A stretch of 64,000 nt of DNA from Amoebophrya sp. A120. Taxonomy: Eukaryota > Protista > Dinoflagellata. A model generated the notes under the pieces. It was not told where the DNA came from, did no database searches, and saw only the letters and a list, made by a program, of their open reading frames with translations. The number at the start of each line of letters is the position of its first letter. The stretch's first letter is position 1. The DNA lies in assembly GCA_905178155.1 (NCBI GenBank), contig CAJINV010000009.1:3466768-3530767 (forward strand), given 5' to 3'. Of the stretch, positions 1,497-64,000 are shown in pieces. Made by a program: the position numbers and the translations under genes.

Positions 1497-4400
1497 ATGT
1501 CGTCCATGATCCAGCCCCCCGTGATGGCGGCGAGCCTGCTGGAGCACGCGCAGCGCGAGATTGTATCAAATGCAAAAATGTCTGGCTCTGAGAGATTGCG
1601 AGACTTGTCATGCTTGTGTGGCATGACCAAAAAGTTTGTAATGCGTGGCCAAGAAGAGACCCTTTTGCTTGTCATGCAGCAACGCAGTTTGTCATGCGAA
1701 AAACGCAACACAAAGAAGCGCAGATATTTCTCGTCATGCTTGGCTGTGCATTACAGAGCATTCACTATTCCCAACGCAGCATTACAAGTTTCCAGACCCA
1801 GACACTTTTGCATTTGATAGATTGAGCTTTTCGCCGATGAAGCTGTGGCGAAGATCAACGACGACATGGTCCAGAAGGAGGGCATATGGATTGCAAAAGT
1901 ATCGTACTCGTATAAATGCATTACAAATTTCCTCACCATGAGAAATAAAATTTGTAATGCAGATTTGCCTTGGGAACAAGATTTGTAATGCAAGACTTGC
2001 ATTTGTACGAGTGCGATACTTTTGCACAGGATAGGGCAAGAAAACGGTGGACACGCTCAACAAGGCGATTCCAGCGTAAGAATTTTTGTTTTTTCTTTTC
2101 TAACCACAACTAGGATACTATGGCATTGTCGTGCATGACGAATGCTTTGCTTTATGCCATGCATGCATGACAAAGCGTAAGCGAATTCATAATCATATTT
2201 CGTAATTCAAAATCTCCAGCTGGCTCGCCATGCTGCTGAAGGAACAGTACGACATTCTGACGACCCGCATGACGCAGGCCTTCTCGCACATGCTACAAGG
2301 GTTGCAGGCGGATCTGCTCGAGTCGGCCAAAGCGGACGACAAACGCATGCGGGATTACGTGCAGAACTTTTTCCAGAAACTTTCCATCGCGGCCGACGTA
2401 CGGCGGCTGAAGACCCAGATGGAACAGGCGCAGTTGGACATCTATGAGAATCTCAGATCGGTTACCTTCTCAACTGTTGCATGAATTTGTCATGCAAAAC
2501 TACCATGATACATCATGAACATGATCATCCACACGATCAAGCTGCTTCGCATGACAAATTTGCAAAGGGCTAAACAGCACCTAAATGATCTGTGCGGAAT
2601 TTGTAATGCTACAGGGGCAGCAACCTCCCCCCTTTGACTTTTGCTATTTTTGCATTACAAATTCGCGTAACTGTTGAGAATCTAAACTGATTTGGGAACG
2701 CCATAACATCCGGAGACTCCAGCAGGACTACGAATCCAATATCAAGAACGGACTGCAGCCCGATGTGGAGAAGGCGGAAATCCAGATTGCGGACTTGATT
2801 TCCATATTCTGAGTAAAAACGTCCCCACCACAGAGTCAAGATGGGGATTTTGCAACACAAACCTTGAAGTTTTGGGAACCACGCATGACAAATTGCAGGC
2901 TGTAGTGTAGTGCAGTTTAGCAAGGGAAGCCGCATCACAAATTCATCTCCTTATCCTGTTTATAGCATTACAAGTTCCAAAACACGATTGGAAATTCTTC
3001 TCGTGGGGATGCGCATGACAAGCGCTCTGGTGCTTGCAGATCTGCATTACAACTCTGGGGTGGGTACGTTTTTACATAGGATATTCCAACGTGAATCGCA
3101 TCGAAAACGACAAGATGGTGGAGGAGGTGCACATATGCATTGCAAAAGTCTGCTCGTACAACTAGTATAAATCGCATGACAAATTGGCTCAGCATTACAA
3201 ATGTAATTTGTAATGCGGATTTCCCTTTATTACTAGATTTGTAATGCATGACTGCGATTACAACTACGAGTGCGATGCTTTTGCATTGGATAGCACAAAT
3301 TGGAGGACAAAATCCTTCTAGAGGGGGAGAAGGTGTTAGACATTGTCGAAACAAAAACGGTCGCTCTGAAAGCGTGGCAACGAGACAAAATGAAGGAGTT
3401 CCAGGACCAAACCACCGACAAAGTGGACAAGTTCGAGGAGAAAGTCGACGTGAAATTGAAAACGTACGAAACTTCGAACAAAAACCAGTGGCTCTGGAAC
3501 GTGCACCAGCACTGCTACGCGGAAGCAGACGCGGAGAAAGACGACCCGGCGAACCTGATCCTGGACTACAGTACCGCCTCGATCAATTCCGCCGGTCCGC
3601 ACCCGCCGCGCTTGGTCCCGAAAACGGTGTTGGCAAAGAAGCAGCAGTATGAGCTCCCAACCGAAACAGTGGCGTTGAAGGAGCACAACGTGTTAACTGA
3701 CACGGGAATCACCCCCACCGAGTTGAACAAACAGCAAGTCCTCTATTCGCAAGATTTCTTCTTCTGCATGGTGCCCAATTGCTACTTGAAACTGATCATC
3801 GGGGAGGAAGTTTGTCACGCGACCGTGGAGGAAAAAAGACAGGCGAGCGCTACGACCTCCACTTCGCAGCCGCGCCGGGTCGTGGGGTGTTACCTGGTCT
3901 TGCAGTTTCCGATATGCATTGCAAATATGTCTGGGTCTGGAAACTTGTGATGCAAGTCCGTGAACAATAAATGCTCTGTAATGCGCCGCCAACCATGACA
4001 AGTTTTTTCGTGCTTGTGTGCTGCGTATTTCGCATGAGAAACTGCGCTTTTGCATCACAGGCAAGCGGGCCTCTTGGTGGCCACGCAATACAGAGTGCAG
4101 AGTCATGCCAGACTAGCATGACAAATCTCGCGATATTCCAGACCCAGACATACTTGCATTTGATATCCGAAGGAGGTGGATTACGAAAGGTCCACGATCC
4201 GTGTCGAGATGAACATGAACGGGCTGCTATCTTGAGTAAAAGCGTCCCTACACCAGAGTCAAGATGCGAAATCCACTATACAAATCCACCAGCTTTGGTT
4301 GTTTCGCATGACAAGTTTGTCATCATAGTGTAATCCTGTTTAGCTAGTTCAGAAGCATCACAGATCCAGCATATCCTGCTGATTCTAGCATCACAACTTC

Positions 4401-62200: not shown

Positions 62201-64000
62201 CATTTTTACATTTTATAAGGTGCTCAGATGAACCACCAGCAACTGATCGAGCAGTACGAGCAGGTAGACGCGCAGGTGATTGACTTGCTATTTTTCACGC
62301 CCAACAACATCATTTCTTCCTCCCAGTTCTCGAGCAGTGGCGGGGGGAACAGCAATGCTGGGAGCAGCAGCTCCGAGGAAGACAGTGTGGCTCATCACCA
62401 CGGGACGACCACAGCCACGAGGTGCCTGTTTCATCATCACCAGGGCAGTACGAGTAGCGGGCCGCTTCGGTATCAAATGCAAAAGTGTCTGGGTCTGGAA
62501 GGCTGCAAGTTTGTCATGCACATTTTGAATGACTCTTGACGTCTGTGATGCATGCTCTAGCATCACAGATTTTGTGAGGGCTTCCTGATGCCTATACCGC
62601 ATGATAAATGCCCTCTCGTCGTGGCAAAAACTGGACCTCTTTTGCTGTTCATGCAATACAGATTTTTCTAGTGTCCAAATGCAGCATCACAAGTTACATC
62701 CTTCCAGACATCCAGGGATATTTGCAATCCATATTCGGGGAACCATGACGATTGAAGAAGTGAAATCCAATACGGGGATCGCGAGCTCCTTCGGAACCAG
62801 CACTGGGGTATCAAATGTAAAAATGTCTGGGTCTGGAAGAGTCCGAACTTGTGATGCTACCTTTGGACTCTACATAAAATCTGTATTGCACGAACAGCAA
62901 AAGAGGTATAATTTGTGCTACGCGGAGAGGGCATTTCTCATGCGGTATGAGCATCAGATTCAGAAAGCCCTCGCAAAATCTCTGATGCTAGGGCATGCAT
63001 CACAGACCTCCTGGGGCATGCAAAATATGCATGACAAACTCCTGCACTCTTCCAGACCCAGACACTTTTGCAATCCATAACGGGGTGGGATGAATAACAA
63101 TGGAGTTGGAACAAGTGCCTCCTCCACGCACGACAGCTCGGCAACCACTTCTGGGAACGAAGATCTTCACGAGAACAAAGAAGTGGACCACGATCAGCAT
63201 GAGCCGTCGCCAACGAGCAACACAAAAATTGCGGTCTACATGGGAGGCAATAGTACTACACAGAATATTACTACTGGCACCACCACTGTAACTACAGGAG
63301 CCACTGCGTCCTCCTCCCGAGGAGGGGTCGGCTCCTGTGCTGTCAACCCGAGTAGTACCAGCAAGCATTTGTTTCAAACCACGCACCAACAGCGTATCCG
63401 GCACCAATCCGCCATTGCCCTGATGCGGGCGGTTTCTGCGCTGCGCAAAGTGGACGAAATTCTGCAGAAGTCGACCATGTTTTGGTCTCATTTAGGCCTG
63501 ACCACGGGACAAGTGTCTCAAATGAAAGACACGCTCACGCTGTGGATCAAGTACGCCAGCAGCATATGAAATGCAAATATGGCTGGGTCTGGAAACTTGT
63601 GATGCTGGTTGGCGAATCAAGAGAACGCCAGAAATGACGGCTCAGCATGACAGGTTTTTGAGTCGCTTGGTGTTGCCTATTCTGCATGAGAAACTGGGTT
63701 TTCGCATGACACAAAAGTCGTGGCGCTTTTGGCTACCTGGCATGACAGAATTGACAGTCATGCTAGCAGAGCATGACAAACCCGGCATTTTTCCAGACCC
63801 AGACATATTTGCAATGCATACAGCAACGAAAAGCTCCGGAAACGACTGCACGAGCGGCTGGAACAGTATCGCATGTTCTGGCTCGATATCCTGTGCAAAG
63901 GTATCGTACTCGTATAGATGCAAGTCTTGCATTACAAATCTTGTTCCCAAGGCAAATCCGCATTACAAATTTTAGTTCTCATGCGGAGGAAATTTGTAAT
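53275..64000 (+). CDS. Ser/Thr protein kinase (CAMK-group-like) with long C-terminal extension; 1 GT-AG intron (53827-54096) plus at least 18 introners; 3'-partial
   Basis: [69 protein letters not shown] and [20 protein letters not shown] appear only after element removal. Confidence 0.93.
54426..54575. mobile_element. Introner family B
   Basis: DR gagca. Confidence 0.9.
54624..54876. mobile_element. Introner family A
   Basis: DR acaac/acaat. Confidence 0.9.
55036..55314. mobile_element. Introner family D
   Basis: DR gtctt; splits kinase DLWSLG motif. Confidence 0.93.
55349..55616. mobile_element. Introner family A
   Basis: DR tgatg; splits MLM/GHYPF. Confidence 0.93.
55662..55987. mobile_element. 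Introner family G
   Basis: DR gttgc. Confidence 0.9.
56034..56183. mobile_element. Introner family B
   Basis: DR tgcaa. Confidence 0.9.
56250..56513. mobile_element. Introner family A
   Basis: DR actaa; splits kinase subdomain XI. Confidence 0.92.
57422..57737. mobile_element. Introner family A with internal ~23-bp tandem duplication
   Basis: DR gcagt; atgtcggtgcggttgttttagca occurs twice. Confidence 0.88.
58436..59645. repeat. GC-rich minisatellite, ~92-bp unit, about 13 copies, each with a strong hairpin
   Basis: CCTAGGCCATGACGCGGGGACCGAGTCCCCGCGCTGGCCTAGG recurs at 58552, 58644, 58736, 58832, 58924, 59016, 59108, 59200, 59292, 59384, 59476; degenerate edge copies. Confidence 0.95.
59702..59967. 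repeat. 11-bp GGGGTRTGTYY tandem repeats followed by three inverted copies
   Basis: ggggtgtgtct/ggggtatgttc array at 59702-59860; gacacacccccgaacatacccccgaacatacccc at 59934-59967. Confidence 0.85.
60195..60476. mobile_element. Introner family A
   Basis: DR aggcg. Confidence 0.9.
61030..61284. mobile_element. Introner family A
   Basis: DR aagga/gagga. Confidence 0.88.
61350..61608. mobile_element. Introner family A
   Basis: DR cgaca. Confidence 0.9.
61674..61892. mobile_element. Introner family H
   Basis: DR gaaca. Confidence 0.88.
61952..62217. mobile_element. Introner family A, close relative of the 25260 copy
   Basis: DR aggtg; internal sequence very similar to 25260-25527. Confidence 0.9.
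62471..62733. mobile_element. Introner family A
   Basis: DR ttcgg. Confidence 0.9.
62809..63079. mobile_element. Introner family A
   Basis: DR tgggg/acggg; frame restored. Confidence 0.87.
63565..63820. mobile_element. Introner family A
   Basis: DR cagca. Confidence 0.9.
63887..64000. mobile_element. Introner family B, truncated by the window end
   Basis: Left end tatcctgtgcaaaggtatcgtactc. Confidence 0.8.

Follow-up and report, generated by a model that had tools for sequence, protein, structure and literature searches.

The stretch of 64,000 nucleotides analysed here (the window) contains a curated set of 53 elements (2443-2705 included), with insertions in an SPFH/Band-7 gene and a protein-kinase gene among them, and these are the published TAT…ATA introners, introns derived from transposons, of the marine parasite Amoebophrya sp. 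A120, with their 5-nt target-site duplications. A 65-aa exon in the window matches, at 100% identity, a protein that bears the name Amoebophrya sp. A120. Terminal inverted repeats (TIRs) made of TAT, seven variable bases and at least three A's are found in most of the 52 window elements checked, the A run deviating in a few families, and relatives at 70-96% identity place 51/52 in repeated families. The flanking direct repeats are perfect in 41 of the 53 elements and imperfect in 12 (Table 1); in a related strain, 5-nt repeats are perfect in 271/340 elements among the loci listed. At positions that could be compared, the orthologous sites are empty, as expected of strain-specific insertion, and the single repeat copy at such empty sites (related-strain locus L107) identifies the repeat as a target-site duplication.

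The available portion of Farhat et al. 2021 (PMC7789003) describes A120 introners as strain-specific, about 150-330 nt long, with inverted repeats of TAT + 7 nt + AAA, a hairpin, and direct repeats of 3-5 nt that span the exon/intron border; to this extent the window elements share the TIR, the direct repeats, the hairpin, the size and the strain-specificity. For 4228-4507, the ends form a hairpin in the predicted fold (z -5.3), with both repeats unpaired. The introners leave the RNA as non-canonical introns, the element plus 5 nt being skipped in spliced contigs and the ends being other than GT-AG. In the same portion of that paper the intron border is left 'unknown' or 'variable', since perfect repeats make its position unreadable, the way in which non-canonical introners are spliced in Amoebophrya is described as an open question, and no use is made of the repeat mismatches. 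Two further candidates were rejected, namely 24630, for which no inverted-repeat end matches and which sits within an open frame of 518 codons, and 33815, which was not accepted as a countable element.

Table 1. TAT…ATA introners of the window; positions include both repeat copies, and repeats are given as upstream / downstream copy.
Introner	Position	Strand	Repeat copies	Mismatch	Evidence or remark
4228-4507	4223..4512	+	GCTGC / ACTCC	positions 1 and 4, both synonymous	inferred intron 4227-4511; RNA
4591-4849	4586..4854	+	TCTCG / GCACG	positions 1 and 3, non-synonymous	RNA and homolog
5208-5516	5203..5521	+	GAGAT / GAAAT	position 3, synonymous	RNA
25629-25965	25624..25970	+	AAATG / AAACG	position 4, synonymous	sequence
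35068-35217	35063..35222	+	GGAGT / GGAAT	position 4, synonymous	sequence
36828-37151 and 37405-37638	36823..37643	+	perfect		both absent from ortholog L107, which has one repeat copy
38659-38921 (SPFH/Band-7 gene)	38654..38926	+	CCCGC / CCCGG	position 5, Ala vs Gly	protein evidence
46495-46688	46490..46693	+	TTCTG / GTCGG		without coding call; uncounted
46901-47119	46896..47124	+	CTGCG / CCGTG	position 2 non-synonymous, position 4 synonymous	sequence
48113-48338	48108..48343	+	CACGA / GACGA	position 1, His vs Asp	short ORF; less certain to be coding
54624-54876 (protein-kinase gene)	54619..54881	+	ACAAC / ACAAT	position 5, synonymous	sequence
61030-61284	61025..61289	+	AAGGA / GAGGA	position 1, synonymous	RNA
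62809-63079	62804..63084	+	TGGGG / ACGGG	position 1 synonymous, position 2 non-synonymous	RNA
remaining 39 introners (background set)	1559..63825	+	perfect		window scan

An earlier note on this DNA had listed 11 coding elements with imperfect repeats and had described their mismatches as biased to synonymous changes; all 11 exist where it placed them, with the mismatches it gave. Six (4228 with two changes, 5208, 25629, 35068, 54624 and 61030) differ only synonymously, while 4591, 38659, 46901, 48113 and 62809 include amino-acid changes, 46901 and 62809 with one synonymous change each besides. The 46495 introner is likely untranslated, lying upstream of the ORF at 46762. Counted per base, 9/15 window mismatches are synonymous, a small sample giving P=0.008 against free drift (expected 0.28) and P=0.08-0.15 against a null with one copy exonic. 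In place of the genome-wide test that the note had proposed, at least 136 loci of the related strain were used, from one assembly and with short flanks at 56 of them, and the excess replicates: among the loci listed, synonymous changes make up 22/36 mismatches (for free drift, P=2e-5) and all mismatches in 19/32 elements. Pooled over window and related strain, 31/51 mismatches are synonymous, against 27% expected under free drift (P=5e-7). The window sample of 15 mismatches could by itself suggest an artefact of small numbers or of frame calling, however this reading is effectively refuted already by the independent replication in the related strain, by wrong-frame controls in which only 10, 4 and 7 of 51 are synonymous, by the stability of the excess over thresholds (22/35, 31/51, 38/60) and by the frame caller, which was trained without the window and on 43 window elements called 32 right and 0 wrong, leaving 11 uncalled.

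The same note had suggested that mismatched repeats can map the true cut, and this is borne out by RNA contigs and protein evidence. At all five mismatched repeats where the base carried in spliced RNA is readable (positions 1-4), it is that of the upstream copy. Three runs of a single sample show this for 4228 (positions 1 and 4), 4591 (1 and 3) and 5208 (3); the other two sites are 61030 (1) and 62809 (1 and 2). The joint 4226>4512 at 4228, with a slack of 1, places the cut after repeat base 4 or 5, and the joints 4588>4853 at 4591 and 5205>5520 at 5208 place it after base 3 or later; at 61030 the contig piece stops at 61025, which puts upstream base 1 in the mRNA, and at 62809 the contig restarts at 63082, which does so for upstream bases 1-2. 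Homolog P0010 has L at the 4591 site, matching the upstream copy, and at 54624 removal of the element plus 5 nt follows from RNA record coordinates. A single junction form, with the element plus 5 nt removed, is seen at 5/5 listed joints (minimum share 1) in assembled contigs of one sample, which hide rare forms. Contigs of runs X3-X5 were taken as RNA because they are spliced; in the raw RNA runs X8 and X9, only 25 and 4 reads mapped.

For position 5 the evidence is at the protein level, from annotation and homologs at two sites. At 38659, A120 protein P0001 has the Gly of the downstream copy, and homologs have Gly in 3/5 and Ala in 0/5 cases, which places the cut at or before base 4; at related-strain locus L136, A120 ortholog P0007 has the downstream residue (Pro), with alignment indels beside the site. 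For the double-mismatch site L072, no homolog turned up in a search. Considering the seven bounds from RNA and protein together, of all registers only a cut after base 4 fits every site, and the cut is likely fixed as N|TAT…ATA-NNNN, without base preference in the repeat. More than one element family contributes to these bounds: base 4 or later is given only by the family of 4228, and the commonest family gives 3-4. It is quite improbable that the register is instead fixed per element or family and differs between them, the cut following base 3, 4 or 5 for example, in the manner of certain Polarella introner classes, with no single ruler and the same ordinary cause for the synonymous bias. The origin of the seven bounds in at least three families would suit such a situation, as would the multi-frame classes of P. 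glacialis in the available part of bioRxiv 2020.10.14.339549, yet one value is compatible with all seven bounds, and the TAT/ATA ends and the removal of the element plus 5 nt are common to all families. Codon-phase bias was kept out of the evidence on the cut, since a palindromic target preference could mimic the pattern.

No base preference is visible in the repeats themselves. In 271 elements compared with coding background, no base is enriched at any of the five positions (position 5 has G 86 times, with 85 expected, and positions 3-4 have AG 25 times, with 22 expected), nor is purine at the exon start enriched above background. Only 8/242 elements are GT-AG in the inferred register, and the TAG acceptors (ATA+G) adjoining elements 4591 and 5208 are skipped in RNA. 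Downstream position 1 is G in 3/5 window coding cases, plus 46495; a change of this base towards G to create a TAG acceptor was considered and rejected, G being unenriched in the larger set and the site unused in RNA. Avoidance of hairpin extension by the repeat ends was likewise rejected (96 vs 97.6 expected).

Against this background the size of the bias can be evaluated. The null of the earlier note, free drift of an intronic copy, is too naive, as every repeat base has an exonic copy, and this raises the synonymous expectation from ~27% to 40-44%. The observed per-opportunity ratio of synonymous to non-synonymous mismatches is 3.96 (bootstrap 2.5-7.1), exceeding the ceiling of 2 that applies if the cut is fixed and the intronic copy neutral (P about 0.005-0.02). 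In an ordinary GT-AG intron compared between the strains, 18/126 sites differ against 19/~81 synonymous sites and 0 non-synonymous ones; with the slower intron rate measured in this one intron, the expected ratio moves near 2.4-2.8, which, as a correction from a single intron, is only just overlapped by the bootstrap range. The synonymous bias is mostly ordinary purifying selection, and the small residual beyond expectation may reflect minor sliding or allelic conversion. By mutation type, and this speaks against such a reading, the ratio is 6.2 for transitions and only 1.1 for G-C transversions. Codon-frequency polarity of the non-synonymous mismatches gives no signal (10/20), and GC-based polarity of the synonymous ones (14:13 and 19:14) fails to discriminate between the models.

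Two explanations had been offered for the bias. The first, that the junction slides and both copies reach the mRNA, finds no support for the major transcript, which has one joint form and the upstream copy at 5/5 sites. A weaker form, in which a minority of transcripts use other cut positions inside the repeat and selection removes amino-acid changes from the mostly intronic copy because it is now and then translated, has a low probability: a ratio of ~4 exceeds 2, and contigs cannot reveal rare forms, however the one joint form at 5/5 sites (minimum share 1) speaks against it, the excess does not fall with distance from the main cut over positions 1-5, and the published 'variable' border may be mere alignment ambiguity inside perfect repeats. 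The synonymous to non-synonymous counts at repeat positions 1-5 are 8:4, 7:4, 3:5, 9:3 and 4:4, with no gradient along the repeat in the pooled data. This evenness would also be expected if, with a fixed cut, either repeat copy is repeatedly replaced through allelic recombination or gene conversion involving haplotypes that lack the intron; since the two copies are colinear with the single copy of the empty site, standing synonymous variants would be imported and amino-acid changes erased from the intronic copy. Insertions that are strain-specific where positions are comparable, the ratio above 2 and an over-representation of double mismatches (15 vs 6 expected) agree with this process, although double mismatches are also expected from a spread of ages, and we regard it as rather improbable. 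The second explanation, that the intronic copy is constrained and that changes arise mainly in the exonic copy, holds in part: exonic changes fit the data, but base counts in 271 elements reveal no sequence constraint on the intronic copy, for which a generally slower intron rate, seen in one intron only, may be enough.

The account that we consider probable is that A120-type introners duplicated five target bases, that a single cut, likely fixed, leaves the upstream copy in the RNA, and that selection on the exonic copy leaves ~60% of the differences synonymous. The cut would leave 1 base between the upstream exon and the element's TAT, and 4 bases between the ATA and the downstream exon, giving each repeat base one exonic and one intronic copy, with positions 1-4 exonic upstream and position 5 likely exonic downstream. 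Both copies would mutate after insertion, the exonic one presumably keeping almost only synonymous changes and the intronic one drifting somewhat slower than synonymous sites; exonic selection and slower intronic drift together would result in surviving differences that are ~60% synonymous. Splice sites would be set by distance from the terminal hairpin, not by GT/AG-like bases. Such a distance-set cut is consistent at seven sites, and 10 elements with clean ends and without a 5-nt repeat, among which assembly chimeras may be included, give mixed results in the frame test (5/10). In comparison with the available portion of PMC7789003, what is new here is that the register is narrowed down to a cut following repeat base 4 and that the synonymous excess is quantified.

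A comparable geometry is known from Euglena non-conventional introns (Nomura et al. 2025, PMC12501133), whose ends are paired by an inverted motif and whose splice sites are set by the spacer from the stem, short on the 5' side (3 nt) and longer on the 3' side (5-6 nt). The inferred A120 spacers of 1 and 4 nt are likewise short 5' and longer 3'. In contrast, the Euglena motif is CDG/CHG and that of A120 TAT/ATA, the lineages are unrelated, Euglena prefers a purine at the exon start whereas A120 introners have no such preference above background, and the Euglena code was shown genetically, that of A120 being deduced here. A120 introners do not carry the Euglena signature N3-CDG…CHG-N5-6|R; they may work like Euglena non-conventional introns but are not members. 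Introners of Micromonas, Aureococcus, Symbiodinium and Polarella, according to the available parts of PMC9860276, PMC11282704 and bioRxiv 2020.10.14.339549, take splice sites from the target-site duplication; in Polarella class 12, the last base of a 5-nt duplication and the element's first base can form the donor. Within the same parts, they and the A120 introners are alike in being MITE-like with TIRs and target duplication, and in splicing that restores mRNA length, but they need G(Y/A) and AG from the target, whereas A120 shows no enriched base; the donor/acceptor enrichment typical of GY/AG-recruiting introners was not found in the 271 elements. A search by titles and abstract starts found no paper on mismatch bias or exact register in these introners.

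It is possible, though doubtful, that one sequence-blind ruler (1 base before and 4 after the hairpin base) governs the cutting of A120 introns by the tens of thousands, a convergence with the non-conventional code of Euglena in a lineage reported to be without U1 snRNA, and that rare register slips, or conversion by empty alleles, in addition keep the spliced-out copy under constraint at the protein level. A fixed 1+4 geometry without base preference, if true, would define what the machinery recognises and would explain intron formation at almost any coding position. The repeat mismatches locate a splice site left unresolved by earlier work. A mismatched repeat occurs in ~17% of elements (66/377); if this proportion holds for the ~30,000 reported A120 elements, several thousand natural markers would be available, and with them the register could be fixed, and slippage measured directly, from RNA reads that already exist. 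Elements with imperfect repeats are slightly further from their nearest relatives than the others (85.5 vs 87.6% identity, P=0.008), as expected if the repeats changed after insertion.

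An inverted-repeat scan of the window recovered short elements with TAT…ATA ends and 5-nt direct repeats at both sides, of which 52 form the curated set (an extra one at 2443-2705, with a perfect repeat, was kept out of the counts). When each element is taken out together with one copy of its repeat, the remaining sequence fuses into long reading frames (2169 codons across 15 elements and 1256 across 17, for example), and a 65-aa exon is a 100% match to a protein labelled as Amoebophrya sp. A120. The elements themselves are already known, since the accessible part of PMC7789003 describes A120 introner elements of the same anatomy; there the intron border is marked as unknown or variable and U1 snRNA as not detected. 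In a related strain, the orthologous locus L107 has neither 36828 nor 37405 and carries one repeat copy at each site, which identifies the repeat as a target-site duplication; this locus has an element of its own 15 nt away. At every comparable site seen (36828 against L107; ~11020 against locus L131) introner positions differ between the strains, whose exons are 85-94% identical.

The earlier note listed 11 coding elements with imperfect repeats and suggested a synonymous bias among the mismatches. The list was reproduced, with 6/11 elements purely synonymous and 9 of 15 mismatched bases synonymous. As an independent sample we used 136 loci (338 kb) of one related assembly carrying the commonest element family, among the matches listed. 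A detector blind to the repeat gave 340 unique elements in these loci (perfect repeats in 271, a single mismatch in 44, two in 10 and at least three in 15); after the last class was dropped, 377 elements were kept, 325 from the loci and 52 from the window. The flanking sequence by itself gave a reading-frame call for 242 of the 377 (45 window, 197 loci); with the window excluded from training, the caller was right for 32, wrong for 0 and silent for 11 of 43 window elements. Among the imperfect elements of the loci, 19 of 32 carry synonymous mismatches only, and 22 of 36 mismatched bases are synonymous. The pooled count is 31 of 51, against 27% expected under free drift with the mutation spectrum of element interiors (P=5e-7), and wrong-frame controls, shifted or antisense, gave 10, 4 and 7 of 51. 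The synonymous excess is thus real and holds in the larger sample.

The same mismatches can map the splice cut, as had been anticipated. Run X1, which matches the window exactly across the listed pieces, is unspliced DNA, while runs X3, X4 and X5, from one sample, give spliced contigs and hence RNA evidence at contig level. Each of these three runs covers 3300-6000 with a single contig, whose joints (3907>4166, 4226>4512, 4588>4853, 4913>5128 and 5205>5520) all skip exactly the element plus 5 nt. The RNA uses the upstream base at 4228 (repeat positions 1 and 4), 4591 (1 and 3) and 5208 (3). In a kinase transcript, a contig piece ending at 61025 shows the upstream copy in use at position 1 of 61030, and one resuming at 63082 shows it at positions 1 and 2 of 62809; unlisted exons of this transcript also lose exactly element plus 5 (coordinate sums of 368, 112 and 493 nt, by hand). 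At position 5 of 38659 the A120 protein has Gly, the downstream copy (homologs: Gly 3/5, Ala 0/5), and for locus L136 the A120 ortholog carries Pro at position 5, again the downstream copy, with indels flanking the site. The cut is bounded at each of these seven sites, five by RNA and two by protein, and the sole single register compatible with all of them is a cut after repeat base 4. As a general rule, we infer, the intron would run from one base ahead of TAT to the fourth base past ATA. A TAG acceptor immediately 3' of the element is skipped at 4591 and 5208.

The earlier note had also proposed that the junction slides within the repeat. However, no second junction form was found among the contigs of the three runs in 3300-6000, and the synonymous excess shows no positional gradient along the repeat, both of which argue against sliding. 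The lack of a gradient is also compatible with allelic conversion from empty sites.

With a fixed cut, each repeat base would be present once in the exon and once in the intron. A synonymous difference could arise in either copy, an amino-acid difference almost solely in the intronic one. From this alone, 40-44% of the mismatches should be synonymous, and the per-opportunity ratio should not exceed 2. This expectation is not rejected by the window alone (P=0.08-0.15) and is rejected by the pooled data (P=0.001-0.013, element-derived and transition-weighted spectra), which put the synonymous to non-synonymous ratio, stratified by mutation class, at 3.96 (likelihood interval 2.25-7.1; bootstrap over elements 2.5-7.1); for the loci taken separately it is 3.8 (2.1-8.3). 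The intronic copy would accordingly change at ~0.2-0.35 of the synonymous rate. In an ordinary GT-AG intron common to both strains (37245-37379), 18 of 126 aligned sites differ, compared with 19 changes at ~81 synonymous sites and 0 non-synonymous, a rate of ~0.6 of the synonymous rate for this one intron, from which a ratio of 2.4-2.8 is expected; by bootstrap P(ratio<=2.5)=0.03 and P(<=3)=0.15. The bias thus appears to reflect mainly ordinary selection on the exonic copy together with slower intron change, with a small residual beyond the resolution of the current sample. The mismatch bias is a true feature with a mainly ordinary cause, and the value of the mismatches lies in marking the cut. 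No paper treating the mismatch bias or the precise register came up in a literature search; relevant material may also lie in Roy et al. (2023 journal version) and in the figures of PMC7789003, both outside its scope.

Some observations are at odds with this reading. Transitions are strongly biased (24 synonymous, 7 non-synonymous), whereas G-C transversions (3 and 10) show no synonymous excess; the latter make up 10 of the 20 non-synonymous mismatches. Double mismatches are also more frequent than binomially expected (15 vs 6).

As a separate observation, the upstream, putatively intronic, copy carries G in 5 of the 8 mismatches at position 5, where a GT donor could have been gained.

Among 271 elements, no base preference was found at any repeat position against the coding background. 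With the cut after base 4, the intron would begin with G in 86 of them (85 expected) and close with AG in 25 (22 expected), and only 8 of 242 elements have GT-AG. In the predicted fold of 4228 the element ends are paired and both repeats single-stranded, and the intron ends may be placed by distance from the hairpin. Such placement would resemble the spacer rule shown, in the part of PMC12501133 consulted, for non-conventional introns of Euglena, whose motif differs. In contrast, other algal introners, according to the available portions of PMC9860276, PMC11282704, PMC12130899 and bioRxiv 2020.10.14.339549, draw G(Y/A) and AG out of the duplicated target, which the elements of the window and loci do not. 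The first repeat base falls on the third codon position in 132 of 271 coding elements of the window and loci L001-L136 (P=5e-7; remaining phases 71 and 68), which would be phase 0 in this register. Those remaining phases are equally frequent, a pattern that a palindromic target preference would produce as well, and the codon-phase bias is therefore not counted as evidence for the register.

Coordinates of atypical elements and of neighbouring features (L numbers, related-strain loci)
Feature	Location	Remarks
Element with 8-nt-looking flanking repeat	L046:2314-2593	
Element with repeat looking like 5 nt plus 3-nt spacer	L002:2123-2341	
Element with repeat looking like 4/7 nt	L102:286-540	
Clean inverted ends, no direct repeat	L005:1610, L020:1371, L042:3334, L049:2884, L044:561, L056:55, L094:286	
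Possible decayed element	window 33815-34112	TAT…ATG ends; repeat 3/5; apparently non-coding DNA; left out of counts
GC-rich region	window 26000-34000	0.50-0.64 per 2-kb bin; zero introners detected
Gene resembling SPFH/Band-7	window 36160-37941	by eye
Gene resembling SPFH/Band-7	window 38357-40316	confirmed by Pfam
1957-nt introner	window 58122-60078	perfect repeat

Fixed removal of element plus 5, if applied to the atypical elements of L046 and L002, would add one codon. For the seven repeat-less elements it keeps the frame in 4 and loses it in 3; some of them may be assembly chimeras. The two adjoining SPFH/Band-7-like genes resemble paralogs, and both carry GT-AG introns mixed with introners. 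The 1957-nt introner has the ends of a ~150-nt family around a GC-rich insert (a 92-nt unit in 11.8 copies, plus GGGGTGTGTC-like short repeats); its precise removal is still seen in an RNA contig, and only the ends therefore seem important.
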